Shown here piece after piece: positions 1 to 51,345 of a DNA stretch of 55,033 bases (its first letter is position 1; each line of letters opens with the position of its first letter). Origin of the DNA: a virus. A program made the position numbers and the translations under genes. The stretch lies in UHGV virus genome UHGV-0072939. One strand, written 5' to 3'. Under the pieces are notes generated by a model. The model did no database searches and had not been told where the DNA came from. It saw nothing but the letters and a program-made list of their open reading frames with translations.

Positions 1-49
1 AATAAACAGTATTTCATGTACCGTTTTTACCCATTAAAAGGAGTTCACC

Positions 50-289
50 ATGTTCGTCGAACTGGTTTACGACAAACGCAATGTGGCAGGGTTACCTGGG
101 GCAAAGGAAATCATCCTGAATGAGCTGACCAAGCGAGTGCATCATATCTTCCCTGATGCAGAGGTGAGGGTTAAGCCAATGCAGGCGAACGCATTAAACA
201 GCGACTGTACCAAAACAGAAAAGGAACGGTTAAACCGCATGCTGGAGGAAATGTTCGAAGAATCTGATTTTTGGATGGTAGCCGAATAA
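50..289 (+). CDS. dinI: DinI-like DNA-damage-inducible protein
   Basis: 79-aa ORF with AAGGAG Shine-Dalgarno 8 nt upstream of ATG at 50; size and acidic C-terminal tail (EESDFWMVAE) resemble DinI family as recalled from memory. Confidence 0.75.
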   Translation: MFVELVYDKRNVAGLPGAKEIILNELTKRVHHIFPDAEVRVKPMQANALNSDCTKTEKERLNRMLEEMFEESDFWMVAE

Positions 290-412
290 TAAACTTTGTT
301 TTTGCATTGCTGTTTTATAGAATCCGCCGCCAGCCGGATATTTTCAATACTCGCACTATCGATTAAAACTGGCTGGCCGCAGCCCCTCTATATACGGGGA
401 GCTGCGGTATTT

Positions 413-793
413 TCACATTACCGGGCAGTCATCAAATTCATCAGAACGCGCATCGTTGATAATGTAGATCACGACGCCAAAAACACCACTCTCATCAAGT
501 TCTGACAGGTCGTCACACTTCAACGGGTCATCGAGTCTTTCCAGAACAGTGCTCCGGGAAAATCGAATACGGCGCAGAGTAAACTCGCCAGCAATAGCAC
601 AGATCACGATTGAACCTTCACAGGCTCTGACACCAGAGTCCACCACCAGCAACGCATCTTTCATAATACCAGCACGCCAGTACGACTGGCCGGCACGCAT
701 GAAATACGTCGAAGACGGGCTTCTGATAAGCTGTTCGTCCAGTGAAATTCTTCGCTCAACATAGTCCTGCGCTGGCGACGGAAACGGCCCCAT
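413..793 (-). CDS. UmuD'-like S24 peptidase-fold protein, starting at the position of the UmuD cleavage site, with catalytic Lys replaced by Arg
   Basis: 126 aa from ATG 793..791, which overlaps the upstream stop as TAATG; aligns by eye to E. coli UmuD residues ~25-139 (GPFPSPAQDYVE vs GFPSPAADYVE, STYF, LLVVDS, GEFT, VFGVVI); GDSM appears as GQSY and the KK after GEFT as RR. Confidence 0.7.
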   Translation of the reverse strand: MGPFPSPAQDYVERRISLDEQLIRSPSSTYFMRAGQSYWRAGIMKDALLVVDSGVRACEGSIVICAIAGEFTLRRIRFSRSTVLERLDDPLKCDDLSELDESGVFGVVIYIINDARSDEFDDCPVM

Positions 794-1035
794 TACCACA
801 CCCTCCCCATCGCGCGGAGTATCCAGTATCTGTTCTCCGTCTGCTGGGTTGTCTTGTCTGTAAAATCGCCCTGATATCTCTTGATCCAGGCGTTGGCCTC
901 CTTCTCCGTGAAAAACCATCCACGCGATCGTAATTCGCGGATAAAGTCACAGGTCTGCAGGTACTGGTAACCCTTCGGATTGAGCTGCACGGCAGCCATG
1001 AATGCAAACTGAATGTCATTTTCTCTCGGCATGAT
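793..1035 (-). CDS. hypothetical small protein (80 aa), translationally coupled to the UmuD'-like gene
   Basis: ATG at 1035..1033 preceded by GAGGTG; stop TAA 795..793 overlaps downstream ATG; no family recognised. Confidence 0.5.
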   Translation of the reverse strand: MMPRENDIQFAFMAAVQLNPKGYQYLQTCDFIRELRSRGWFFTEKEANAWIKRYQGDFTDKTTQQTENRYWILRAMGRVW

Positions 1036-1249
1036 ACACCTCTCATCAATACTGATTATACATACAGTAGTTTTAACGAGAGAGCAGATCAACCCCTGAT
1101 TTCTGGCTTTCCTGTAACCCGTTATGGGATGAAGATTTTTAGTTTTCCGGGGCAGCCGCTGGTAAACTGCGCGGCGGTTGCCAACGGCATGAACACCCGT
1201 CAACCAGCCGCAGCCCGCTCTGCATACGGCGGGGCTGCGGCGCCACAGT

Positions 1250-1446
1250 CTACTTCGCTACAGCCTCCTCTGGGTCAGGTTCAGCTGGCGCGATGAAGTT
1301 TTCACCATTCCACGCATAGCCTATAGATACTCCCCGCCCCTCGGCCAGGACAAGCTCAAGACCCTCTCCCGGATCATAATCGGTTATACCATCCCATTCG
1401 ATAACATTGACGACGAGACCATTTTGAACAACTGCGTAAATGCTCA
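1250..1446 (-). CDS. hypothetical small phage protein (65 aa); possibly a tail-fibre-assembly remnant
   Basis: internal ATG at 1446..1444 of the 149-aa ORF; the upstream part of that ORF overlaps the acyltransferase gene in another frame; function not recognised. Confidence 0.4.
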
Positions 1447-1509
1447 TATTTTCTCCATATATTAACGAAAAACCCAGCCGGAGCTGGGTTATAGAGCGTT
1501 TAGTTAACG

Positions 1510-2628
1510 TTATGCTACTGCAGGTTTTCTTTCCAGCATCCCTCTTATTGCTTTCCTTGCTGGCACTTCCACGAAGTGGAAAAGCAGCGCTGAGATTGCT
1601 ATGGTTACCAACCAATACATCACGTACATGGTAGTTGGGTTTTCTTTTAGTATATCCCCATGAAATATACGTAAGTAATTCAATATTACCTGATGACACA
1701 TATACACAGAGAAACTGATCTCACCAAGATAAACAAAGTACTTATTTGATAAAAAATTAGATATCATGCCATTTTGACGTGAAAAGACAAAAACAAGAAA
1801 ACCAATAGTAGGGAAACTACCAGCTACAGCAAGCCAGTAAAAAAACGTTGCCATTGGCGAGTTGCTCCAATATCCATATAGTGAGCTAAATGTACATAAC
1901 GACAAAAAAACAAGAATTATGCTAATTAATTCAGCAGACATAAGCCTGCGATTATTTCCTTCAACATTTACAATCTTGTTTTTCATGCTAAATACATACA
2001 TGCCAAACGCAAATTCAGCAAGCCTTGAAACTGGATTTATATACACTAAGTAATACCCATCAACTGAGTCGTTCCCTGAATGCAAGGGTATTGACATTGC
2101 GGCACAGGCAATAGAGATAACTATCGGGAACGAAATGCAAAACAGCAAAACAGAATTCCCATACTTTCTGCCAAGAACCAATAGGAACGGGAACATCGCA
2201 TAGAAAAACAACTCAGTAGACACACTCCACGAAACTGCATTGTATGAAAAATAAAACTTTTGATAAGGAATCCATGATTGCATCAAAACTGAGTTTACTG
2301 AAAACACATCAGAGTAACTCTTCCCACTCTCATAAAAAATGTTAGGACCAAAAACAAAAAGGCATGTTATCAACATAACCAAGTGCAAAGGCCATATCCT
2401 TGCAATCCTGGCAATTAAAAACCTGAGATAGCCACTTTTAATATCCATATTGTAATACGTGAAAGAAAGTATAAATCCAGACAAAACATAAAAGAAAGAA
2501 ACGGCGTTATTTAGTTGAATCGAACCAATTCTAAACACCTCAAAGCCCGGTGCATTCCCCGCATGCCCTATGACAATCATTGCGGCAGCAAAAAAACGAA
2601 TGGAGGTTAACGAATTAATTTTATTCAT
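1510..2628 (-). CDS. acyltransferase family 3 integral membrane protein (O-antigen acetyltransferase-like, serotype-conversion candidate)
   Basis: 372 aa, multiple hydrophobic helices, N-terminal SIRFFAAAMIVIGHAG motif typical of acyltransferase-3/OafA/Oac family; AT-rich composition; directly downstream of tail fibre gene. Confidence 0.8.
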   Translation of the reverse strand: MNKINSLTSIRFFAAAMIVIGHAGNAPGFEVFRIGSIQLNNAVSFFYVLSGFILSFTYYNMDIKSGYLRFLIARIARIWPLHLVMLITCLFVFGPNIFYESGKSYSDVFSVNSVLMQSWIPYQKFYFSYNAVSWSVSTELFFYAMFPFLLVLGRKYGNSVLLFCISFPIVISIACAAMSIPLHSGNDSVDGYYLVYINPVSRLAEFAFGMYVFSMKNKIVNVEGNNRRLMSAELISIILVFLSLCTFSSLYGYWSNSPMATFFYWLAVAGSFPTIGFLVFVFSRQNGMISNFLSNKYFVYLGEISFSVYMCHQVILNYLRIFHGDILKENPTTMYVMYWLVTIAISALLFHFVEVPARKAIRGMLERKPAVA

Positions 2629-2707
2629 GTTTTATCATAACTTGTCTTTGGGATTTTGATGTAAAGTAGATCATGGCATAAATGATTAGTTTATGCCATG
2701 GCGATCA

Positions 2708-3556
2708 TCATGCGTACTCGCAAACTGTCACAAATCCCTTTCCTCCATTGAAACCAGCCCTTGCGGGCTGGTTAATAAGATTGACCAAACCTCCCGCGCC
2801 AGAGCCATTTTCCCCATCACCACCAGTACCACCCGCAGAATACGGAGATGCCGCACCAGTACCAAGGTTTCCTACGGAACCATTCACCACAGTTGACCCA
2901 GCGCCGGCCTTTCCCTTAGTTGAAATAATGTTACCACCTGTAGGTGCAGTAGTTTCTGTGCTGCCCCCTCTGGAAGTTGGAAAAGAGATTGCTGTGCTTC
3001 CTGTAGATCCACCTCCGTTTCCACCAGGGCAAACAATTAAAGACCCGAAACTTGAAGTGCCACCAGTCCCACCATCGCCCCCGCCTGCCGTCCCTGCGGC
3101 ACCACCCACCCCGATAGTGACGGCTTGGGATGAGCCGATTTGCACTGCTGTAAATATCCCCTTCGCATACGCTCCCGACCCACCGGCTCCTGATGCTCCT
3201 ACACTACTGGAGCCCGTTGCAGGCACACCACCACTTCCTCCACCAGCCCCCTGAACCTCTACAATTGAGAACGTCATTCCAGGAGTAGGCGTAAAGTTTG
3301 CTGAAGATGTGAACGTCCTGACGTTAAGAAGACGCCCTGAAATGGGGAGTAGCTTTTTCAGCGCAGTCAGTACCTGGGTCATATTGTTGGGATCCAGCGT
3401 CATTCCCGCCGATTCGACTATGTTTGCCAGCTCCTCCTGCAAAGCATTAAAGGCCGGTGCGCGAAGACGCGTCGCCGGGGTTCCGCCGGCAACGTTGCCA
3501 TCGGTATATTTGCCATCGGATGTGGCAGTAGGCTCAACTTGCCCGATTCTGAGCAT
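2708..3556 (-). CDS. tail fibre protein (Gly-rich, Mu S / Stf-like)
   Basis: 282 aa, GAGGA SD before ATG 3556; long Gly/Ser/Thr-rich stretches (GGGSGG, GGTGGT) typical of side tail fibres; position after the Mu R-like gene. Confidence 0.7.
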   Translation of the reverse strand: MLRIGQVEPTATSDGKYTDGNVAGGTPATRLRAPAFNALQEELANIVESAGMTLDPNNMTQVLTALKKLLPISGRLLNVRTFTSSANFTPTPGMTFSIVEVQGAGGGSGGVPATGSSSVGASGAGGSGAYAKGIFTAVQIGSSQAVTIGVGGAAGTAGGGDGGTGGTSSFGSLIVCPGGNGGGSTGSTAISFPTSRGGSTETTAPTGGNIISTKGKAGAGSTVVNGSVGNLGTGAASPYSAGGTGGDGENGSGAGGLVNLINQPARAGFNGGKGFVTVCEYA

Positions 3557-35459: not shown

Positions 35460-36026
35460 TTATTTCTCCATACACGAAGAGTTGTTCGCCAAGGCGCCCG
35501 GAGCTGCACACTCGCGGGCGTCACTTTTTTCCGGCGCACAAAACACACGAAACAGCAGCGTCAGATGCTCCTGCCACTTCGCCATCACCTGGTAACTGTT
35601 CTCTTCGATTTGCTCACGTTCTGCCGGGTCAATAACGCCGTCAGCGGTCGCCTTGCGCAGGTACTGTGAGTGTCTGCCGATCCATTCGATTGACTCCATC
35701 AGGCGCTGGTTGATGTCACCGTTGTCGACGTCATCAATGTCCACCAGCGGCACAAACACACCACCGCTACGGCGGGCTATCGCATCGGTGACGTACTTAG
35801 TGCCGCTGGCATCCTGCAGCACCATCGCCCACTCAAGCGGGAAAATCTGGTCGCCTTCGCTGCGCAGCCGGTTATAGAGCGCATCGGTTGAAACTTTTCC
35901 GGCGCGATACAGGCCAAGCCATTCAGCAGCTTCGGCATATCCGCCAGGCATTTCGGCGATAGTCCGTTTAATGGCAGCCACCAGCCAGGCGGGCTGTCGT
36001 TCGACTTTCCAGTGTTGTTTATCCAC
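35460..36026 (-). CDS. regulatory protein in the CII position (possibly YdaT-like); start uncertain
   Basis: ORF 35460-36128; GTG at 36026 with AAGGGG SD is the favoured start, to limit overlap with the cro-like gene. Confidence 0.4.
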   Translation of the reverse strand: MDKQHWKVERQPAWLVAAIKRTIAEMPGGYAEAAEWLGLYRAGKVSTDALYNRLRSEGDQIFPLEWAMVLQDASGTKYVTDAIARRSGGVFVPLVDIDDVDNGDINQRLMESIEWIGRHSQYLRKATADGVIDPAEREQIEENSYQVMAKWQEHLTLLFRVFCAPEKSDARECAAPGALANNSSCMEK

Positions 36027-36054
36027 GGTTGTCCCCTTGTTTCTGTGGTATTCG

Positions 36055-36252
36055 TTAAGCGACTGTCTGATTAGACTTTTGATAAAGAACGGAGCTGTAC
36101 TTGAGCTTTCCTTTCGTGATCCGCTCAATCACAAAAGCTTGCTTCTCGGGGATGATCTCCCCCCATCGACAAACTGCTGGATGGGAAATACCTAATGCAT
36201 TAGCAGTTTTGGCTACTCCGCCGAAGTGCTCTATGACTTCAGATTTGCGCAT
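36055..36252 (-). CDS. Cro-like HTH repressor
   Basis: 65 aa, AGGAGG SD, HTH (VAKTANALGISHPAVCRW); divergent from the cI-like gene. Confidence 0.7.
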   Translation of the reverse strand: MRKSEVIEHFGGVAKTANALGISHPAVCRWGEIIPEKQAFVIERITKGKLKYSSVLYQKSNQTVA

Positions 36253-36277: not shown

Positions 36278-36348
36278 CACAAGGTAACAAAAGGTACATT
36301 AAATAGCAAACAACAGTTACCATCAAAAGAGGTAACATTGGTTACATG
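36278..36348. promoter_or_regulatory. operator-like AGGTA direct-repeat pairs in the cro/cI intergenic region (OR-like)
   Basis: AAGGTAACAAAAGGTACATT and GAGGTAACATTGGTTACATG read directly; same unit recurs downstream of cI. Confidence 0.45.
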
Positions 36349-37005
36349 AAAACAGAGATGAAAGACCGTATTCGTTCGCGTCGAGTCCAGCTCGATATGA
36401 CTCAGCTTACCCTTGCCAAAAAGCTTGGGGTCAGTCGCGTGTCTGTAACGAAATGGGAGAATGGAACAACGAAGCCGGATGGTGAGAATTTACACCAACT
36501 TGCTGGTGTACTTCAGGTAACCCCGGAATGGATTCTCTATGGCAAAGGAGATGCTGACGTTGATGATATCAAATTAGTCCCCTTCCTTAAGCCGCCAACA
36601 GCAGTGCCTATTATATCAGCCGTTCAGGCTGGTTTATGGACAGAAACCTACGCCAGTTCAAGGCTTACAGACGTGATTGCATGGACACAAACTACAGCTA
36701 ATGTATCTGATGAGGTTTTCGGGTTAGTGGTCCGCGGAGAGTCAATGACTAACCCTCATGGATTGCCATCAATTCCAGAAGGTTCCATTGTTATCGTTGA
36801 ACCACATTTCGGGCAAATTGATGATCTTTACGGGAAAATAGTCGTTGCCACACTGGAAGGCTCTACCGAAGCGACTGTAAAAAAATTAGTGTGGGATAGC
36901 CCATTCGCCTATCTCATGCCACTTAACCCAGCTTTCAAGCCTATCCAAATTGACGGAAACTGCCGAATTGTCGGCAAAGTCGTCCAAATAACCCAGAACA
37001 TTTAA
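36346..37005 (+). CDS. CI-like prophage repressor (HTH plus S24 peptidase domain)
   Basis: 219 aa; N-terminal HTH (LTQLTLAKKLGVSRVSVTKWENG), C-terminal GESM...K (VVRGESMTNP, KKL) LexA-type autocleavage domain. Confidence 0.85.
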   Translation: MKTEMKDRIRSRRVQLDMTQLTLAKKLGVSRVSVTKWENGTTKPDGENLHQLAGVLQVTPEWILYGKGDADVDDIKLVPFLKPPTAVPIISAVQAGLWTETYASSRLTDVIAWTQTTANVSDEVFGLVVRGESMTNPHGLPSIPEGSIVIVEPHFGQIDDLYGKIVVATLEGSTEATVKKLVWDSPFAYLMPLNPAFKPIQIDGNCRIVGKVVQITQNI

Positions 37006-42839: not shown

Positions 42840-43045
42840 ATCTTGAATGCGTACCCATATCAACTTACTGCCGTGACTCCGGCGAGACCGTAGAAGCTGT
42901 TAATAAACGGATACAAAGGGGATTATGGCAGGAAGGGGTCCATATATTAAAGATCGATGGCGTAAAAGAGCGCTGGATTGATTTAACTGAGGTCACGAAA
43001 TGGGCGAGAAAAAACAAGGATCCTTACAGCTCCCACGCGGTATAA
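42836..43045 (+). CDS. excisionase-like protein
   Basis: 69 aa immediately upstream of and overlapping the integrase gene. Confidence 0.5.
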   Translation: MNLECVPISTYCRDSGETVEAVNKRIQRGLWQEGVHILKIDGVKERWIDLTEVTKWARKNKDPYSSHAV

Positions 43046-44175
43046 CCGCGCGCCATCATAAGAACGGCTCAACACTTATTATCACGTTCACATATAAAGG
43101 GGTTCTATGCCGGGAACCCCTTTCCCGTATCGAGCTGAATCCAAAGGGTATAAAATATGCAGAACGCCTCCTGGGAGAGGTTCAGAACAGAATTGCGGAG
43201 GGTGATTTCGATTATGCCAAATACTTCCCAAAATCTAAGAAGTTGGATATTTTTGGGAAAGTTAACCGGACAAAAAACATCAAGTCTTATCTCGATGAAT
43301 ATCTGGAGATCTGCGCAAATCGAAACTTATCGCCATCGACAATTGGAGGGTATGAAAAATGCCTCTCAGCTCTGTCTGATTTACATAAACTACACGTCGC
43401 CGAGCTTACACCGGCAGTATTGAAAAACTGGATCGCCAGCCGGAAAACAAAGCTTAAAACGATACGAAACAACCTCTCATTTTTGCGTAGCGCAATCGAT
43501 GAGGCAGTGACTGATGGGCTGTTGACGATAAACCCGGTTACGCTTGTCAGCGCCAGCCGGTACCACGTGATCGACAGCACGCCGAACCCCGACGATTACG
43601 AGGTGGATCCGTTCACACCTGCAGAGGCCAGCGCCATTTACATGCACTGCAGGTTTCAGGAATGGGAAAACCTGTTCCGCTTTGCATTTAACACCGGGAT
43701 GCGTAGTTCTGAACTGTGCGCGTTGCGCTGGCCTGATATCGACTTTATCGAGAATACTGCTCACGTTCAGGCAGCCAGCGTTGTCGGTGTGCTGAAGGGT
43801 ACCAAGACAAAAGCTGGTACCCGTAAAGTCGAGCTGAATAGCGATGCGCTGTCGGCGCTGCAGGCGCAAAAGCCATTCACCTTTATGAAGAGCGATTTCA
43901 TCTTCAGCGATCCTAAAACAGAGAAACCATGGGCAAACGCTGATGCGATTCGAAAAAAGGCCTGGGTCCCCACGTTGAAGAAAGCAGGAGTTCGGTACCG
44001 AAACCCATATCAAACACGCCATACGTTCGCTACGCGCCACATCAGCCAAGGCGTTAACCTTTTCTGGTTGGCCGGGCAAATGGGGCACAAAGGACCGGAA
44101 ATGTTGTTCCGTCACTATGGTTCCTACCTGGCTGCTTATGATGGGAAAACGGCAATTGAAGCGAGGAAATTTTGA
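43000..44175 (+). CDS. tyrosine integrase (lambda Int family)
   Basis: 391 aa; C-terminal catalytic region with R...HTFATRH...Y pattern (RHTFATRH, HYGSY). Confidence 0.9.
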   Translation: MGEKKQGSLQLPRGITARHHKNGSTLIITFTYKGVLCREPLSRIELNPKGIKYAERLLGEVQNRIAEGDFDYAKYFPKSKKLDIFGKVNRTKNIKSYLDEYLEICANRNLSPSTIGGYEKCLSALSDLHKLHVAELTPAVLKNWIASRKTKLKTIRNNLSFLRSAIDEAVTDGLLTINPVTLVSASRYHVIDSTPNPDDYEVDPFTPAEASAIYMHCRFQEWENLFRFAFNTGMRSSELCALRWPDIDFIENTAHVQAASVVGVLKGTKTKAGTRKVELNSDALSALQAQKPFTFMKSDFIFSDPKTEKPWANADAIRKKAWVPTLKKAGVRYRNPYQTRHTFATRHISQGVNLFWLAGQMGHKGPEMLFRHYGSYLAAYDGKTAIEARKF

Positions 44176-44283: not shown

Positions 44284-44319
44284 TTTCGGACACGGGTTCA
44301 ACTCCCGCCAGCTCCACCA
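44284..44319 (+). other. prophage attachment site: partial copy of the tmRNA (ssrA) 3' end
   Basis: TTTCGGACACGGGTTCAACTCCCGCCAGCTCCACCA matches the recalled 3' end of E. coli tmRNA with one mismatch; upstream sequence is not tmRNA, so this is a partial att copy. Confidence 0.7.
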
Positions 44320-44479: not shown

Positions 44480-47400
44480 TCAGAACGACCAGTTCACACC
44501 AGCTACCGCGTTCCACGGGGATTCCACACCGGCACTATGGCTATACCCCACCCCAAGATGCCCGCTTAACGTACTGCTGAATGAGGCTTTAATACCTGCC
44601 TGGTATATTCCACGTCTGCCCGACAAATAATTGACGAAATTACCGTCACTATTCACTTTCACCCGGTTATCATCGACAAATTCTTTGCGCACAGCCGCCT
44701 TCAGCCACGGCTCAACTTCCATACCGTTCCCCAGACGCATGTTGTAACTCAGCGTTGCGCCCAGTTCACGATATATACTGCGGGTATCGACTGATTTCGA
44801 TTTCATGCCATTGGATAAATGATATTCGGGGTTATCAGCGGTGAACCCCGTTAACGATGCATACGGCGTCAGGTTCCAGTTACCATCGGTAAATCGCATC
44901 CCGGTTTCAATGTGACCGCCCAGCCCGTTGCTGTGGTAACTGCCATTGGCGGCTCCACCGCTGCTCATTTTACCTGCTACGTTACTTTTAAAACGGTTCA
45001 GCTTCACGACACCGTCCAGATAGAAACCACTTTCATGTTCCCAACTGGCATAGCCGCCCAGAGAATAACTGCCCACACTGCCATGTCCTCCGCGATCAAA
45101 ACCGATATGTGAATGGGAATAGCCCATAAAAGCGCCTAGCGTGGTAATTCCTTCAGGAATATCATTACGGCTGTCGATCCCCACTGTCATTCCGGTCAGC
45201 GTCTGCTCAAACCCGGCACCCGCATCGGTGGTGACATTATTACGGGTGTTATACGTCGCCCCCCAGACATTATTGTTGTGTGGACTCGCTTTCATTATGT
45301 TCAACCGCTCGCGAATACTGTTTAGCTCAGCATCAAATACCAACGGTAATGTTGCTGCCATATTGAGTACGGCTGCCGTAGAAGGCGTAATGCGTTTCTC
45401 CGGAACGGGTGTCGGCGTTGGATCGGGAGTAGGGTCTGGTTTTGGATTTGGGTCTGGCTTTGGATCGGGTTTTGGGTCTGGCTTTGGATTTGGGATGGGG
45501 TCCGGGTTGGGTTTGACATCATTGGTCAGGTTCCAGTTGCTGTTGCCGTCACTTTTCAGGACATACTCATAGGTCCCAAGATCAACGAAACCGCCGGTAT
45601 TGCCCAGCGTAAACGAAGCATCCCCTCCCCCTGTTTTCACCAGCGTCATCGCGTCGTCAGACTGTGGGCTGACGCCGGTATCCTGAACAAAGATTTTAAA
45701 ATTACCAGTGGCGTTGTTGTTGACGACCAGTTGATCGCCCCGGGAGCCTGCAACGTTGGTATGCAGGTAGAAATTACCGCTACCGGAAAGTTCATTGGTT
45801 GTCAGCGTATTGTAGATACCGTTAGTTGTGGCAGGCGCTGCTGTTTGTGCTGACAAATAAACATCACCGTCGTTGAGTAGCAAACTGTTTACTCTATATT
45901 CGCAGTTGCTGGTACCTGCACAGGAATTATTGCTGTTAAGCCAGACACTGCCCCGGCTGGCAGCCGTCAGGTCGGCAAGCGTGGTATCGACGCCATTTCC
46001 CAGAGTCAATGTCGCGCTATCGGTAATCCGGACCGCCCCTTCGAGTTTAACTGGCGTAACATTATCCCGTGGCGTCATTAACGACAGGCTTCCTGTCGCG
46101 CCACTGACCGATGCATCCGCCAGCGTACCTGCGTAGACGATTGCCGTACCGCCAGCGACCTGGAGATCTTCTGCCCGGGCCAGAGCCTGAAACTCATCTT
46201 TTGACCGCCCAAGGGTATATTGCCCGCCAGAGTTAACCTTTGTGGCGGAGTCCTGACCCAGGTTTTGCATTGCCCCACCCTTGCCAACCGTGGAGTCGCG
46301 AGCTTCGGTACCTGCTAATACCAATAAATTACCGCCATTTTCCAGCAACATATTAGTCGCTAAATTGCCGGAAATGGAAAAAGTACCGTACTGGTGAGTA
46401 CCGCTGATTTCAATACCGTTAGCCGTGCTCGTCTGGAGAGCGGCACCGCTGTTCTGGACGATATCTGTCGCTTTGCCATTATCGTTGACTGTCAGCGTAC
46501 CGCCTTCATTGATCTTTGTTTTTATTGCCTCTCCGTTAGCTGAAACTGTTTGTATTCCGCCGTCGTTAATTGTTGTCTCATTCGCCACACCCTCGACAAT
46601 TTGTTCACCGCCGGTGAGCGTCGTGCCTGTCGCAGTGGCTTTTGTTTTGACGATCTCCCGTCCGCCCATATTGACCTGTGTTTTGTCAGAAGAGGTGTCT
46701 GACTCCACGGTTAACACGCCGCCATTTGCCAGCAGGATATTGTTCGCCGCACCCTGCTCGATGCTGAACGCGACGCCATCCGCGCGTGTTCCTGTGACCC
46801 GCGTCGCCCTGGTGGTTGCAACCAAAGCGCCCTGGCTACTCTGCTGTATCCCCGTTGCGCTGCCTTTCTCCCGCACATCGAGTGTGCCGCCGTCATTAAG
46901 CACCGAGTTTTCAGCCAGACCGCCCTCATTAACTACCTGTGAACCCCCATTAATAATGGAACCTTCCGCTGTCCCGTTTGCCATAATTTGTTGTAGGCCA
47001 GAGACGATATCGGTATTGATTGCCTTACCATAATTCTGAACGGTTTGCGTGCCACCATTGATGTGTGTTTTCTCTGTTGACCCACCATCAACAATTTGTT
47101 CACCACTTTCGATATTTGCTTCAGTGGCTAAACCATATACCGTTTGCTTGCCACCTTTGATATTTGCTTTATCAGAAGTGGCACTGGCATATATTGTTTG
47201 GGTGCCAGCACTATTGAGTACAGTGCCAACATCTTTTCCATAAACATCCATTTTGCCGTTGGCATTAATAATCGTGTCAACTGCGCGGGAACCAGTGACG
47301 ACTGTTAATGAGCCAGCGTTTTCCAGCACTACATTTTTAGCTTCTGAATTCCTGATGTAGAAAGCATCACCATAACTGTTGGTTCCTTCGATAAGTGTTC

Positions 47401-49060
47401 CGGAGGTCGTGGAAGCAATTAATGCGCCGCCGGATTGTTGCTCAACATGCTTAGCCTCACCACCGTCCTGAACCTCCAGAACGCCGCCATTATTAAGTCT
47501 GGTGCTATCTGTTTTAGCCTCCTTCTGGACAATCAGCTTACCGCCAGTATCAATGGTAGTATTTTTCGCCGAGGTTTTAGCCACTACCGTCAGTTCGCCG
47601 GTATTTTCCAGCACAACATAATTAGCCTCCCCTCCGGTAATAGTGAAGTGAGAGAGCTTGTTGTATCCTTCGATATCAGTCCCTGCACCCGTGTTGGCAA
47701 CTAAAGCACTGCCCGTCTCCTGGTTAACCCCATGTGCAATACCGCCGGTATAGACAATCAGCGAGCCTCCGGCGCTAATATTGCTGCCAATTGCCGTACC
47801 ATCTTTCTCAACAACCTGCCGGCTCCCGGAGGATATAATTGTTGTGTCAGCTTTCCCGCCGCTTTTGATATTTTGCGTTCCGCTGTTGATATTGGTGCCT
47901 GTGGCTATGCCATAATTATTAATATTCTGTGTGCCACCATTAATTATGGTATTTGTCGCGTTTCCTGCAACATCCATAACCCCGCCATTATCTATTCGGG
48001 TCGCATCAGCTTTAGCATTGGTTAAAACTGACATTGTTCCTTTATCTTTAATAATCGTCTTGTTTGCCGAACCATATGCGTTTATGTCTAAATGACCACC
48101 GTTTTCCAGCAACACATTGTCTGCCACGTGATTGTGGATGGAGAATGCACCTTCACTATTCGTACCGCTCACCGTCGTACCGTTAGTGTTAGTTTTTAAA
48201 ATTGCACCATCGTGCTGGGTAACATTTGTTGCCGTACCACCACTAACATCAAGCACGCCACCAGAATAAACTTCAATAACATCCGAGGTGCTGGTGTTAT
48301 CAACAATTTGCGTGCCACCAGAATAGATATGCGTATTTTTTGCCGTTGACTTACTATTCAGAGACTGAGTTCCGCCTTCAATCGTCGTGTCCAGCGCACG
48401 GCTCTCATATACTCTTTGCTCACCGCCATTTTTAATGGTTGTTGTTTCTACTGTGCTCTGTTCAACATACTGTCGACCACCATTTATGGTTGTGTTCGTT
48501 GCCAGACTTCCTTGTACTACGTCCTGAGAGCCAGACTTATTTATCGTTGTACCATCAGCATGCCCTTGAACTTTTACTATCTGGCTACCACCATCAATGA
48601 GTATTCCATTCGCACTCCCTCCCTCTACGCGTGAAGCACCGCCCTTAATTGTCGTTCCATTGCTGATACCCCCTTTATAAACGTCCTGATTGCCACTCTC
48701 GATTGTCGTACCTGTGGAAATACCCCCGTCATGAATTGACTGTCTGCCACCGTTAATGGTTGTATTATTAGCCTGCCCCACAAAATTGTTATGACTTCCT
48801 ATATCTTGATATCCACCAGATTCAATAAGACTTCCATTAGATACCCCGCCATGAACATTCTGCTGGCCATGGTTGATAATATGAGTGTTATTTGTTGTAC
48901 CTCGTTCATCCACTTTTTGGTTGCCATCTACAGTCTCATCGTTTACCACACCAATAACATTAGTAGTGAAGGCAGCCATCCCGGGCGGGGCATATATCAA
49001 GGCAGATATCAATAAGGAAAGTACTGAGCGGCGACAATAATAGGGACTGGTCCTGTTCAT
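44480..49060 (-). CDS. ypjA: AIDA-I type autotransporter adhesin (type Va secretion)
   Basis: ORF 44480-49189; favoured start ATG 49060 (GAGG 9 nt upstream) giving MNRTSPYY... signal region; repetitive GG.Q.V passenger repeats, PKPDPKPDP linker, C-terminal beta-barrel ending NWSF; ypjA assignment from memory. Confidence 0.85.
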   Translation of the reverse strand: MNRTSPYYCRRSVLSLLISALIYAPPGMAAFTTNVIGVVNDETVDGNQKVDERGTTNNTHIINHGQQNVHGGVSNGSLIESGGYQDIGSHNNFVGQANNTTINGGRQSIHDGGISTGTTIESGNQDVYKGGISNGTTIKGGASRVEGGSANGILIDGGSQIVKVQGHADGTTINKSGSQDVVQGSLATNTTINGGRQYVEQSTVETTTIKNGGEQRVYESRALDTTIEGGTQSLNSKSTAKNTHIYSGGTQIVDNTSTSDVIEVYSGGVLDVSGGTATNVTQHDGAILKTNTNGTTVSGTNSEGAFSIHNHVADNVLLENGGHLDINAYGSANKTIIKDKGTMSVLTNAKADATRIDNGGVMDVAGNATNTIINGGTQNINNYGIATGTNINSGTQNIKSGGKADTTIISSGSRQVVEKDGTAIGSNISAGGSLIVYTGGIAHGVNQETGSALVANTGAGTDIEGYNKLSHFTITGGEANYVVLENTGELTVVAKTSAKNTTIDTGGKLIVQKEAKTDSTRLNNGGVLEVQDGGEAKHVEQQSGGALIASTTSGTLIEGTNSYGDAFYIRNSEAKNVVLENAGSLTVVTGSRAVDTIINANGKMDVYGKDVGTVLNSAGTQTIYASATSDKANIKGGKQTVYGLATEANIESGEQIVDGGSTEKTHINGGTQTVQNYGKAINTDIVSGLQQIMANGTAEGSIINGGSQVVNEGGLAENSVLNDGGTLDVREKGSATGIQQSSQGALVATTRATRVTGTRADGVAFSIEQGAANNILLANGGVLTVESDTSSDKTQVNMGGREIVKTKATATGTTLTGGEQIVEGVANETTINDGGIQTVSANGEAIKTKINEGGTLTVNDNGKATDIVQNSGAALQTSTANGIEISGTHQYGTFSISGNLATNMLLENGGNLLVLAGTEARDSTVGKGGAMQNLGQDSATKVNSGGQYTLGRSKDEFQALARAEDLQVAGGTAIVYAGTLADASVSGATGSLSLMTPRDNVTPVKLEGAVRITDSATLTLGNGVDTTLADLTAASRGSVWLNSNNSCAGTSNCEYRVNSLLLNDGDVYLSAQTAAPATTNGIYNTLTTNELSGSGNFYLHTNVAGSRGDQLVVNNNATGNFKIFVQDTGVSPQSDDAMTLVKTGGGDASFTLGNTGGFVDLGTYEYVLKSDGNSNWNLTNDVKPNPDPIPNPKPDPKPDPKPDPNPKPDPTPDPTPTPVPEKRITPSTAAVLNMAATLPLVFDAELNSIRERLNIMKASPHNNNVWGATYNTRNNVTTDAGAGFEQTLTGMTVGIDSRNDIPEGITTLGAFMGYSHSHIGFDRGGHGSVGSYSLGGYASWEHESGFYLDGVVKLNRFKSNVAGKMSSGGAANGSYHSNGLGGHIETGMRFTDGNWNLTPYASLTGFTADNPEYHLSNGMKSKSVDTRSIYRELGATLSYNMRLGNGMEVEPWLKAAVRKEFVDDNRVKVNSDGNFVNYLSGRRGIYQAGIKASFSSTLSGHLGVGYSHSAGVESPWNAVAGVNWSF

Positions 49061-49429
49061 AAATTTCATCCTCTGAAAAGTGAATACTGAGTAGCGTTTA
49101 AGCGACCTTAGCTTTGCTGCAACATCAGCCCACAGGCACCAGACCAGGGGATTCATCCTGAAGAGACAGCGCAAGTGTATTGTGTTCACCGCTCATCAAA
49201 GACATCATGATGAAATGATGATATTCCGCATAAGAATGAGGCATTTTTTAAACGCAGTGCGCTGAAGTGTGGTTGGATAAAAAAGTCAATCCATTCAGGA
49301 AATACGGGCGTATTCTTTTCTTTCGACAATGAGGCCGTTGGCAAAATAAAATGATTTACATAATCGTTTCTGATGAATATCTTCTGCTCACATAAAAATC
49401 ACACAATAACTTTGAGATCGCAGATTGTT

Positions 49430-49700
49430 TTACTTTTACAGCATTCGTCCCCCCATTGTTGGGCAAATATAGATTGGGCCAGAGCACGAAAGTTAATACC
49501 ACGTTCGCACAGCTCCTCCAACAGCACGACAAGATGCCACATACTGCGCCCCAGTCGGTTCAGTTTACAGACTAGCAGTGCGTTCCCTGCCGATGATGTC
49601 CTGACCAGTTTTTTCAGTCCGGACCTCCTGCCACGGTTTTACGTTGAAGTGGTAACCCTGAGCACGCAGTTCTTCAGTCAGGCGTGGTGCACCGTAACGC
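49430..49700 (-). pseudogene. remnants of a serine recombinase (invertase/resolvase) and possibly an IS3-family transposase fragment
   Basis: minus-strand translation gives KLNRLGRSMWHLVVLLEELCERGINFRAL (resolvase-like core without N-terminal catalytic Ser) and [15 protein letters not shown] in another frame; no intact ORF. Confidence 0.4.
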
Positions 49701-49971
49701 TGTTATTGCTGGGTAAGATCAAAAAACTTTCAGGCAGCTAAGGAAAGTTGAACCAGACATTAGATGAAATATTTCAACCAATTACAGCACCAATTCAGTC
49801 ACTGCCAGCCCACCAAATAAATCAAGGGGTTACATGAAAACGTAGCCCCTTTTTCTTTGGTAGTGACACTAAAATGGATGTAGTGTGAAGAATAATCCCG
49901 TTTACTCAATCAATAATACATATTGTTTCAATCTACGTTATTATCTCTTTGTAAAAATTGCCATTTATTAA

Positions 49972-50763
49972 TCATTGAAAACTGCTTTTAGAACTTGATA
50001 CAACGGGACTAGTCACAACAGGACTATTCTCAACGGGATCATCCTCAGAGGAACTATCATCAAAGTCATCATCCATAAATAAAATATCATCGAATGGTGC
50101 CACGCCCGTGATGAGTTTTATTTTATTATTACGATCAGTCAATACTCCACTTAAACCGTTTTCGCTCACAGGTTTTAATGATTTTTCATTACTCTTGTTG
50201 TAAGCAGGCGCATTAAAAATACACGGAATATCAACATCAAACAATGACGTTCCCCAGTTCACATATTGAATATCATAGTTACTGAAGTTCTGTCCAGAAA
50301 AGAAGCACCCCTTAAAATCCAATCCACGTAAATTATATAAACCACCCTCTTCTTTTTGGAGAGTAATGTTAATTTTGGCTATCTCCCGGACATCATCGCC
50401 ATTTTTGTATTTGAATACCGTTTCAAGATGTTCTCCAGACAGCTTGACTTCAGGAAATAATTTGAAATCAAAGCCTATATTATTATGTGTCAACGTAGAT
50501 GAACAAAAAATGGAAAAAGCTTGCAGTGCTGAATTATAGCTATCGATTTTATCTTGAGGCTGAGCTCTTGGTAAAAACTTATAGCAACACTCATAAAAAT
50601 TAAACAGAAGCTCTGAAGACCTTGTATTTTTATCAAATAATACCCCCTTGAACTCATTCACAAACGCATCTTTTTTTTCTTGAATATCTATGGGGTGTTC
50701 CTTTGACTCTGACAAAGATGAAATCTCATCTATTTTGTTTTCATATGAATTACGTGATTCCAT
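49972..50763 (-). CDS. hypothetical protein (263 aa), AT-rich
   Basis: long ORF in strongly AT-rich DNA; no family recognised. Confidence 0.5.
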   Translation of the reverse strand: MESRNSYENKIDEISSLSESKEHPIDIQEKKDAFVNEFKGVLFDKNTRSSELLFNFYECCYKFLPRAQPQDKIDSYNSALQAFSIFCSSTLTHNNIGFDFKLFPEVKLSGEHLETVFKYKNGDDVREIAKINITLQKEEGGLYNLRGLDFKGCFFSGQNFSNYDIQYVNWGTSLFDVDIPCIFNAPAYNKSNEKSLKPVSENGLSGVLTDRNNKIKLITGVAPFDDILFMDDDFDDSSSEDDPVENSPVVTSPVVSSSKSSFQ

Positions 50764-50862
50764 ACAGACATTTGGCGGCGTTTCTAAAATAACACTACGC
50801 GTACTACTTGGCTTAAGTAAACCAACATGAAAATCACTTTTTCTTATATTATCGAAAAGGTT

Positions 50863-51345
50863 CTATTCATTTCTTTTAGCGCATTCAAAAAACTGATCGG
50901 CATTATTTTTATTCGATAATTTTTTAGTTTCAGAAAACACATTTTCATTGTTTTCCAGCTTTAGTTTAATGAGAAGATTTTCCCAGACCTGCTTGCTTAA
51001 ACATATTACGTCAGGCTCACCAGAACTAACTAACTCGTGATTATTATTAAAGTGTACGTTGAATACCTTTAAGTTATTTTCACCAACTTCATATTTAATA
51101 CGTTTTAATTGTTCTCCAGTTCCCATAATGACAAAGGCGTTGCCTTCTTGATATATACATTCAGACATCATTTTTTGTAAAGTTTCAAGAGCACCGCGAT
51201 ACGTCTCTGATGCAGCTTCCTTACAAATTAATTTTAAAATACTATGAGCTAGTAGCTCCATGTGTTTAGAAGATTTATTTTCATTATAACTTCCACTACC
51301 CAAAACTGCGCTAGCGTTAAATCCGTTGCTTTTACTAACTAACAT
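50863..51345 (-). CDS. hypothetical protein (160 aa), AT-rich
   Basis: ORF in AT-rich DNA; no family recognised. Confidence 0.45.
   Translation of the reverse strand: MLVSKSNGFNASAVLGSGSYNENKSSKHMELLAHSILKLICKEAASETYRGALETLQKMMSECIYQEGNAFVIMGTGEQLKRIKYEVGENNLKVFNVHFNNNHELVSSGEPDVICLSKQVWENLLIKLKLENNENVFSETKKLSNKNNADQFFECAKRNE

Follow-up and report, generated by a model that had tools for sequence, protein, structure and literature searches.

A HumD-family UmuD' homologue, its conserved partner gene and a dinI-like gene, preceded by predicted LexA boxes, at the end of an Escherichia coli prophage

UHGV virus genome UHGV-0072939, a stretch of 55,033 nucleotides that is referred to in full as the window, contains a prophage of Escherichia coli, and at the extreme end of this prophage lie three small genes: a dinI-like gene and, converging on it from the opposite strand, orf79 and humD. 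Judged by its sequence, the 126-amino-acid (aa) product of humD, though divergent, genuinely belongs to the HumD family, that is, it is a natively pre-cut form of UmuD'. With moderate confidence, we favour the reading that the locus consists of two SOS-inducible 'moron' units, the dinI-like gene and the orf79–humD operon, with HumD supplying pre-cut UmuD' to the UmuC of the host. A first-pass annotation of this DNA had seen in it an SOS-related prophage cargo with DinI, which stands, with a LexA box found before both units, but it had also seen something unusual, whereas the humD product passes the threshold of an established family model (NF051876). A natively processed UmuD' without umuC is the rediscovery of a family known since 1999. 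The only uncharted piece of the locus is the conserved partner gene orf79, with the short-form companions of its relatives, and should a partner of this kind be required or employed by HumD-type proteins, it would be relevant to the way in which temperate phages adjust host mutagenesis, and hence resistance evolution, during SOS induction.

The humD product and its active site

The humD product aligned with the solved UmuD' structures (1umu, 1i4v) with E=2e-22, and in both structure and MAFFT alignments its Met1-Gly2 coincide with Cys24-Gly25 of UmuD, the site of RecA*-stimulated cleavage. UmuD residues G58-D59-S60-M61 correspond to G-Q-S-Y, with the Ser nucleophile kept, and V96-K97-K98 to L-R-R (within TLRR), with Arg in the position of the general base Lys97. 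A Peptidase_S24 domain (PF00717) was detected with 34.7 bits (cut-off 23.3) over profile positions 10–85 of 116. Two hallmarks of an S24 autopeptidase are missing from the protein, namely the Ser–Lys pair, Arg standing for Lys97, and the N-terminal Ala/Cys-Gly cleavage site, as the protein starts at the Gly.

Against the NCBIfam equivalog model NF051876 ('HumD family translesion DNA polymerase', cut-off 120), the protein scored 162.7 bits and covered model positions 2–129 of 129; the reference scores are 221.5 for P1 HumD, 221.8 for the HK140 protein and 204.1 for N15 gp26. Its score with the UmuD subfamily model NF007621 was 92.1 bits, below the cut-off of 110. The protein belongs to PHROG 811 ('UmuD-like') and is 53.8% identical to phage P1 HumD over its full length and ~51–55% identical to N15 gp26, phiKO2 gp23 and the homologues of HK639 and HK140. 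This exact E. coli sequence also carries the name of the HumD model in NCBI and UniRef. The HumD-specific C-terminal extension (INDARSGEFDDCPV), which is absent from UmuD, is present: the window protein ends in INDARSDEFDDCPVM, with a tail (NDARSDEFDDCPVM) of the INDARSxEFDDCPV type, in which N113, D114, A115, R116, E119, D121, D122 and P124 are invariant across 37 members.

The catalytic positions were compared across the family in an alignment to UmuD of 120 cluster representatives plus the window protein (n=121). At the position of Ser60, Thr predominates (102 proteins, 84%), followed by Ser (17), Met (1) and Ala (1), while the Lys97 position is occupied by Lys in 96 proteins (79%), by Met in 13 (11%) and by Arg in 12 (10%). 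The combination of Ser and Arg found in the window protein is seen in 6 of the 121. P1 HumD has kept both Ser and Lys; HK140 and N15 have Thr and Lys. The term 'pseudo-peptidase' is accurate for the window protein, but it names a family trait and does not speak for a role as decoy. With no cleavage in cis left for a pre-cut UmuD' to perform, the dyad would be expected to come under relaxed constraint.

When humD and orf79 were compared with those of the 84%-identical relative L046, dN/dS (the ratio of nonsynonymous to synonymous substitution rates) was 0.088 for humD and 0.069 for orf79 at a dS of ~1.05, indicating that both genes are under purifying selection. The three genes of L046 have the same arrangement, and GQSY and LRR are kept in both copies. 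An identical HumD protein was read on 24 contigs and, according to the index, occurs in 76 blocks of the collection.

An alternative start of humD, which would yield a 168-aa protein (ATG 919), was rejected: a stop codon interrupts the extension in an 84%-identical relative, so that no coding sequence is conserved upstream of the Gly, and each of the 121 representatives starts with M-G/A at the position of the UmuD cleavage site. No umuC was detected by tblastn of E. coli UmuC (an approximate query sequence) against the whole window, where the best E value was 0.61, or among the genes in the 8 kb past the left window end. Over this span of the 55-kb window plus 8 kb, humD is a stand-alone gene without a linked umuC, inside a prophage integrated in ssrA. 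On the protein itself the first-pass annotation thus read the sequence correctly: the 126-aa product begins at the UmuD cleavage site, alignment with UmuD confirms that it retains the Ser in GQSY and has lost the general-base Lys, no umuC accompanies the gene, and a normal N-terminal arm from another start, which would have spoken against that reading, is not borne out.

The partner gene, the dinI-like gene and their LexA boxes

The TAA of orf79 (795–793) and the ATG of humD (793–791) have one base in common (TAATG), and the ribosome-binding site of humD (GGAGG) lies 8 bases 5' of its ATG, within the end of orf79. This overlap had been recognized in the first-pass annotation, although the upstream open reading frame (ORF) was given as 80 aa and in fact encodes 79. 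The orf79 protein belongs to PHROG 3893 (unknown function, E=2e-36) and gave no significant sequence or profile match in Pfam, NCBIfam, PADLOC or the PDB. Its family is narrow, as a profile search of 1.84 billion representatives returned 150 clusters at E≤0.001, nearly all of them of ~79 aa. No paper describing the partner or the short form introduced below was found in the searchable literature.

The gene context was surveyed for 48 occurrences of the partner, taken from 33 GTDB genome loci, several phages and metagenome contigs. In 38 of the 48, the partner is followed within 2 nt by a gene of the MGFPSPA type. Seven of these coupled genes have full HumD length (123–129 aa), 26 encode a short form of ~105 aa, four are truncated and one runs off its contig. 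The short form corresponds to PHROG 3469 ('UmuD-like'). GFPSPAxDY at its N-terminus and a DDCP-like motif at its C-terminus are retained, the Ser region is lacking, and with 31.5 bits in the NCBIfam HumD model it is not HumD. Distant relatives of the partner have the same layout, after tail-fibre genes, and a divergent DinI gene is found immediately upstream of the cassette in 6 of the 33 genome loci. The partner depends on a HumD-type gene, whereas HumD is independent of the partner. From this one-way dependence and the 1-nt overlap we infer that orf79 is probably an accessory or stoichiometric binding partner of HumD.

The survey gave rise to several further observations. Short forms ('mini-HumD') occur in L008–L034, L004 (mEp390_026), L041 and L042, where the S24 domain has apparently been whittled down yet conserved. 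In a Pantoea anthophila LMG 2558 contig (L038, NZ_VHIZ01000018.1, 4001–4470), the gene whose start is overlapped by a relative of orf79 (38% identity, with a LexA box upstream) is umuC-like and not of the humD type. Its umuC-like stretch matches residues 1–76 of E. coli UmuC at 73% identity and is cut after 77 codons by an insertion with several large ORFs, at least one of which resembles a tyrosine recombinase by eye. An association of the partner with umuC was considered and not retained: this is the sole such locus, its umuC is truncated, and P0285, of the same partner subfamily, has no umuC. In an Atlantibacter hermannii contig (L048, 1013–3858), TIR-domain and reverse-transcriptase genes lie on the opposite strand directly downstream of the partner/HumD pair and may represent a defence island adjoining the cassette. 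Finally, the C-terminus of orf79 (ENRYWILRAMGRV, residues 64–78, window 793–840) resembles the WGR motif of PARP-1 (ENRYWIFRSWGRV) with a profile E of 0.065. This resemblance was treated as probably due to chance, because it covers 16 residues only and no Pfam family passed the cut-off for orf79.

The product of the dinI-like gene matched Pfam PF06183 with 77.9 bits (cut-off 24.2, E=7e-22) and PHROG 189 ('RecA filament binding protein DinI'). With the NCBIfam DinI equivalog it reached 43 bits against a cut-off of 111, a score that does not support orthology to chromosomal DinI. As this cut-off is missed, the gene is, on its profile scores, a phage DinI paralogue of a common type and not an orthologue of chromosomal dinI. 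Between orf79 and this DinI-family protein no relationship was detected (BLASTP E=1.7, no Pfam DinI hit for orf79). The dinI-like gene and orf79–humD are convergent and separated by 123 bp (290–412); the first-pass annotation had placed the former on the other strand, as it is, but at a distance of 120 bp. The gap contains a stable hairpin (376–408), with minimum free energies of -22.6 (plus strand) and -20.7 kcal/mol (minus strand; z of -2.8 and -2.6 versus shuffles). It begins 5 nt past the humD stop on the minus strand, and UAUUUUC comes after it on the plus strand. Because of this U-run directly after the hairpin on the plus strand, we regard it as probably a shared bidirectional terminator.

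A predicted LexA box, TACTGTTTATTTATACAGTA, is located 38 nt upstream of the dinI-like ATG and is a perfect CTGT-N8-ACAG. It starts 9 nt ahead of the window, ends at position 11 and was read in L005, a longer contig found by exact-protein look-up whose identity with window positions 1–1500 is 1500/1500. The first-pass annotation had suggested searching for a LexA box upstream of position 1; it was found there, positions 1–11 being its right half. The box before orf79 is the only TACTG-N10-CAGTA in the 55-kb window, where 0.01 would be expected by chance, and 17 nt separate it from the orf79 ATG. One position (TCAG) differs from CTGT-N8-ACAG; TCAG is likewise found at this place in functional E. 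coli LexA boxes, for example that of uvrA. Of 30 related loci, 29 have a CTG-N10-CAG box 14–23 nt 5' of the partner ATG. Where upstream sequences were inspected by eye, a TTGATC hexamer stands at a distance of 17–18 nt from the LexA box, and many of the other upstream sequences contain it as well. This comparative conservation suggests that TTGATC is probably the -35 element, and TACTGT, the left half of the LexA box, the -10 element of an orf79–humD promoter, so that the box would overlap the -10 element. Both units are presumably controlled by LexA in vivo.

Proposed function and competing explanations

E. coli normally carries umuDC. Upon DNA damage, LexA would leave both boxes, and the DinI paralogue would be made alongside orf79 and HumD, the latter two from one mRNA. 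Being pre-cut, HumD could dimerise at once and join host UmuC in a translesion polymerase of the Pol V type, with no need to wait for the cleavage of UmuD, which depends on RecA* and is slow. The DinI-like protein would bind RecA filaments and damp their co-protease reactions, such that processing of host UmuD would be held back and the phage subunit favoured, and orf79 would serve as a translationally coupled accessory protein, probably as a stoichiometric partner of HumD. Because HumD would never have to cleave itself, the S24 Ser-Lys dyad would be dispensable and might have drifted (Lys to Arg) for this reason. The steps that would follow the departure of LexA, among them the pairing of HumD with UmuC, the interplay with DinI and the contact between orf79 and HumD, are deduced from family membership and established SOS biology. 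That DinI and a pre-cut UmuD' could together uncouple Pol V activation from RecA* processing is a reasonable inference.

Two papers (PMC7092418, PMC4713147, citing McLenigan et al. 1999) describe P1 HumD as an already-activated, shorter UmuD that facilitates SOS mutagenesis, and as a functional UmuD' homologue working with host UmuC. Within the family, such substitution for UmuD' is known for P1 HumD only. P1 humD is LexA-regulated (PMC9603915), and the P1 GenBank record states that humD functionally complements E. coli UmuD' and lists a LexA site in its control region. In PMC9926225, DinI is described as binding the groove of the RecA filament that is used by UmuD, LexA and CI. The view that the module acts on the host SOS response rather than performing mutagenesis, put forward in the first-pass annotation, is without support, the founder of the family being a protein that facilitates SOS mutagenesis together with host UmuC.

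Several findings weigh against a role of the window protein as a supplier of UmuD'. It lies on the most divergent branch of the family, with at most 59% identity to other members and a score ~60 bits below that of P1 HumD. Its AlphaFold model was poor (predicted local distance difference test, pLDDT, 50.8; 37-sequence alignment) and was not used for a fold search, so that the HumD-like fold is assigned by sequence homology. The HumDs of P1 and N15 exist without an orf79 partner, which would imply an additional or different activity where the partner is present. Moreover, 26 of the 48 partners are coupled to the ~105-aa short form without the Ser region; since most partners pair with this form, there are hints that the selected function of the pair may not need a UmuD'-like body. 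A generic sigma-70 scan also called no promoter at orf79–humD.

Two related alternatives are, in our view, each rather unlikely. In the first, the non-catalytic HumD-like protein, orf79 and DinI would form an SOS modulator or decoy that binds RecA* filaments, UmuD/UmuD' or UmuC and restrains Pol V or the cleavage of LexA or CI. The loss of the general base, a dedicated partner that P1 and N15 lack, and the recurrent linkage to DinI (in the six genome loci above as well as HK140, mEp390 and L046) are consistent with this, as are the divergent branch of the window HumD and the pairing of most partners with a short form in which much of the S24 core is gone. However, the tested member of the family promotes mutagenesis, there is no evidence of RecA binding, and loss of the dyad is family-wide and expected for any pre-cut UmuD'; to lack umuC and to vary in the dyad is the norm in this family and does not mark a decoy. 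In the second, orf79 and the HumD-type protein would form an SOS module of two dedicated proteins, selected for a function other than Pol V activation. Its S24 part would be a repurposed non-catalytic scaffold that is decaying to the ~105-aa form and that, together with the winged-helix-like partner and a linked DinI, would act on RecA filaments or on LexA, CI or UmuD processing. If this were true, the phage would encode, in this module, a controller of the SOS response of its host.

It is improbable that orf79 is a small DNA-binding regulator, either an autoregulator or an Xis-like directionality factor at the att-proximal end, and that its coupling to humD is incidental. The AlphaFold (AF2) model of orf79 (pLDDT 89.6) has a winged-helix-like H-E-H-H-E-E topology. 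Foldseek against the PDB returned weak matches to winged-helix DNA binders (the Fur DNA-binding domain, ArgR, TubR, PadR and the winged-helix domains of ORC; template modelling score ~0.5) at E≥0.1 and nothing at E≤0.001, and against the viral models of BFVD it returned only its own homologue K7P7N3. A manual count of charged residues puts the net charge of orf79 at ~+3, and in HK140 and mEp390 its gene adjoins attP. On the other hand, most of the putative recognition helix (DANAWIERY) is made up of conserved residues that are acidic or hydrophobic, in mEp390 an excisionase is annotated as a gene of its own, and the overlap with a HumD-type gene, recurring in 38 of the 48 occurrences, argues for functional coupling.

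We consider it very improbable that orf79–humD is a LexA-controlled antirepressor or induction module in which orf79, HumD or both inactivate the prophage repressor upon DNA damage, as is the case for Tum of coliphage 186 and the Gifsy antirepressors. A LexA box before a small operon at a prophage end, beside a dinI homologue, would fit such a module, as would the winged-helix-like model of orf79. However, the prophage has its own CI-type repressor (36346–37005, plus strand) with an HTH_3 domain and a full Peptidase_S24 domain, including an Ala-Gly site, GESM and VKK, and this repressor should respond to RecA* unaided; a gene with a Phage_CP76 domain (CII-type regulatory protein; 35460–36128, minus strand) is divergent from it. 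Because this CI is of the cleavable type, the role in prophage induction that the first-pass annotation had allowed for is unneeded. In addition, the cassette is found in many unrelated lambdoid, N15-like and Mu-tail prophages with differing immunity regions, and profile searches gave no hit to an antirepressor family. Least probable of all is that humD is a decaying relic, a dead umuD fragment left after umuC loss: a lost catalytic Lys, the lack of umuC and a divergent branch would agree with it, but it is contradicted by the low dN/dS of both genes, an intact ORF with ribosome-binding site, LexA box and terminator, the spread of the identical protein over contigs and blocks of the collection, and a family that as a whole starts precisely at the cleavage site.

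The prophage setting and comparison with known systems

The coordinates of the module and of the sites that delimit the prophage are collected in Table 1. In L005, a spacer of ~200 bp to the left of window position 1 is followed by an intact ssrA (tmRNA) ending, ~218 bp from that position, in a second copy of the attachment core, and the 8 kb past the left window end contain ssrA, smpB, ratA, rnfH, bamE, recN, nadK and grpE. The core, a 27-bp repeat of the ssrA 3' end, recurs just beyond a tyrosine integrase gene at the other end of the prophage. From the positions of these two copies, a prophage of ~44.5 kb occupies ssrA, and the SOS module is the outermost part of its cargo. Mu-type baseplate genes are present in this prophage. 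Its host is E. coli, as all three proteins are found identical in NCBI draft assemblies, and megablast of window positions 1–1500 gave no match among 5,426 complete E. coli genomes.

Table 1. Coordinates of the SOS module, its predicted control elements and the attachment core in the window
Feature	Position	Strand	Description
DinI-family gene	50-289	+	79 aa; preceded by AAGGAG ribosome-binding site
humD (HumD-family gene)	413-793	-	126 aa; natural UmuD'-form S24 domain
orf79	793-1032	-	79 aa; conserved partner of humD
Stable hairpin	376-408		Between the convergent dinI-like gene and humD
Right half of predicted dinI LexA box	1-11		Full box begins 9 nt before the window
Predicted orf79–humD LexA box	1050-1069		TACTGTATGTATAATCAGTA on the minus strand
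Probable -35 hexamer TTGATC	1087-1092	-	17 nt upstream of TACTGT; from comparison of upstream sequences
Attachment core, 3' end of ssrA	44293-44319		CGGGTTCAACTCCCGCCAGCTCCACCA; past the integrase gene (43000-44175)

Some features of the surrounding DNA were also recorded. Just upstream of the orf79 promoter, a 65-aa ORF (1250–1447, minus strand; PHROG 14370, unknown function) is kept in the identical loci L005–L007 and is followed by a GC-rich hairpin at ~1207–1241. Between the tail-fibre genes and the SOS module lies an Acyl_transf_3 gene (OafA/O-antigen acetylase type; 1510–2628, minus strand), which forms an island of 33–39% GC content versus ~52–60% in its neighbours and is probably a serotype-converting moron. 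In Erwinia phage vB_EhrS_59, an O-acetyltransferase gene occupies the equivalent position, adjoining the partner/UmuD-like pair of that phage. A 190-aa Pro-rich ORF (2682–3254, plus strand) antisense to a Gly-rich tail-fibre-like gene (2708–3556, minus strand) is most likely a compositional artefact of GGN/NCC repeats. Immediately outside the prophage end, the region 44480–51345 encodes a 1569-aa AIDA/pertactin autotransporter adhesin together with DUF5508/DUF5507 genes, and is similar to the ypjA region next to CP4-57, which occupies the ssrA site of E. coli K-12.

Among known proteins, the closest parallel is P1 HumD, with N15 gp26 and phiKO2 gp23. Like the window protein, P1 HumD (129 versus 126 aa) starts at the cleavage site, has the NDARSxEFDDCPV tail and is encoded in a temperate phage by a gene with a LexA box upstream and no adjacent umuC. 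It differs in its active site (ADSH / IKR), where Ser and Lys are both kept and the window protein has Arg, and P1 humD stands alone, divergent from lxr, whereas the window gene is coupled to orf79. With E. coli UmuD/UmuD' (PDB 1UMU, 1I4V, 1AY9), the window protein shares the S24 body at ~41% identity (tblastn), the GFPSPAxDYVE N-terminus and the equivalent of Ser60. Compared to UmuD, it lacks the 24-residue N-terminal arm, has a one-residue deletion before the Ser and carries an extra acidic C-terminal tail; the overlapping umuC is also absent at the window gene.

The impCAB operon of plasmid TP110 resembles orf79–humD in having a small accessory ORF directly upstream of a UmuD-type gene within an SOS-related operon of a mobile element. 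ImpC is DinI-like, whereas orf79 shows no DinI similarity, and no equivalent of impB/umuC is present at the window locus. The third gene of impCAB-type operons is mentioned in PMC11541004 and PMC7092418.

The nearest relatives of the whole module are found in phages HK140 (HK140_027/028) and mEp390 (mEp390_025-026 region), which have the same three gene families, a partner that is 56–65% identical to orf79 and the same 1-nt overlap with a HumD-type gene. The genes of these cassettes are annotated as 'hypothetical', and no paper describing them was found in the searchable literature. As in the window, they are located between tail-fibre genes and att/int, beside dinI. In HK140 and mEp390, however, dinI is divergent and shares a control region of 85–120 bp with the cassette, whereas in the window and in L046 it is convergent and downstream. 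Furthermore, mEp390 and most of the genome loci carry the ~105-aa short form (PHROG 3469), while the window carries a full HumD.

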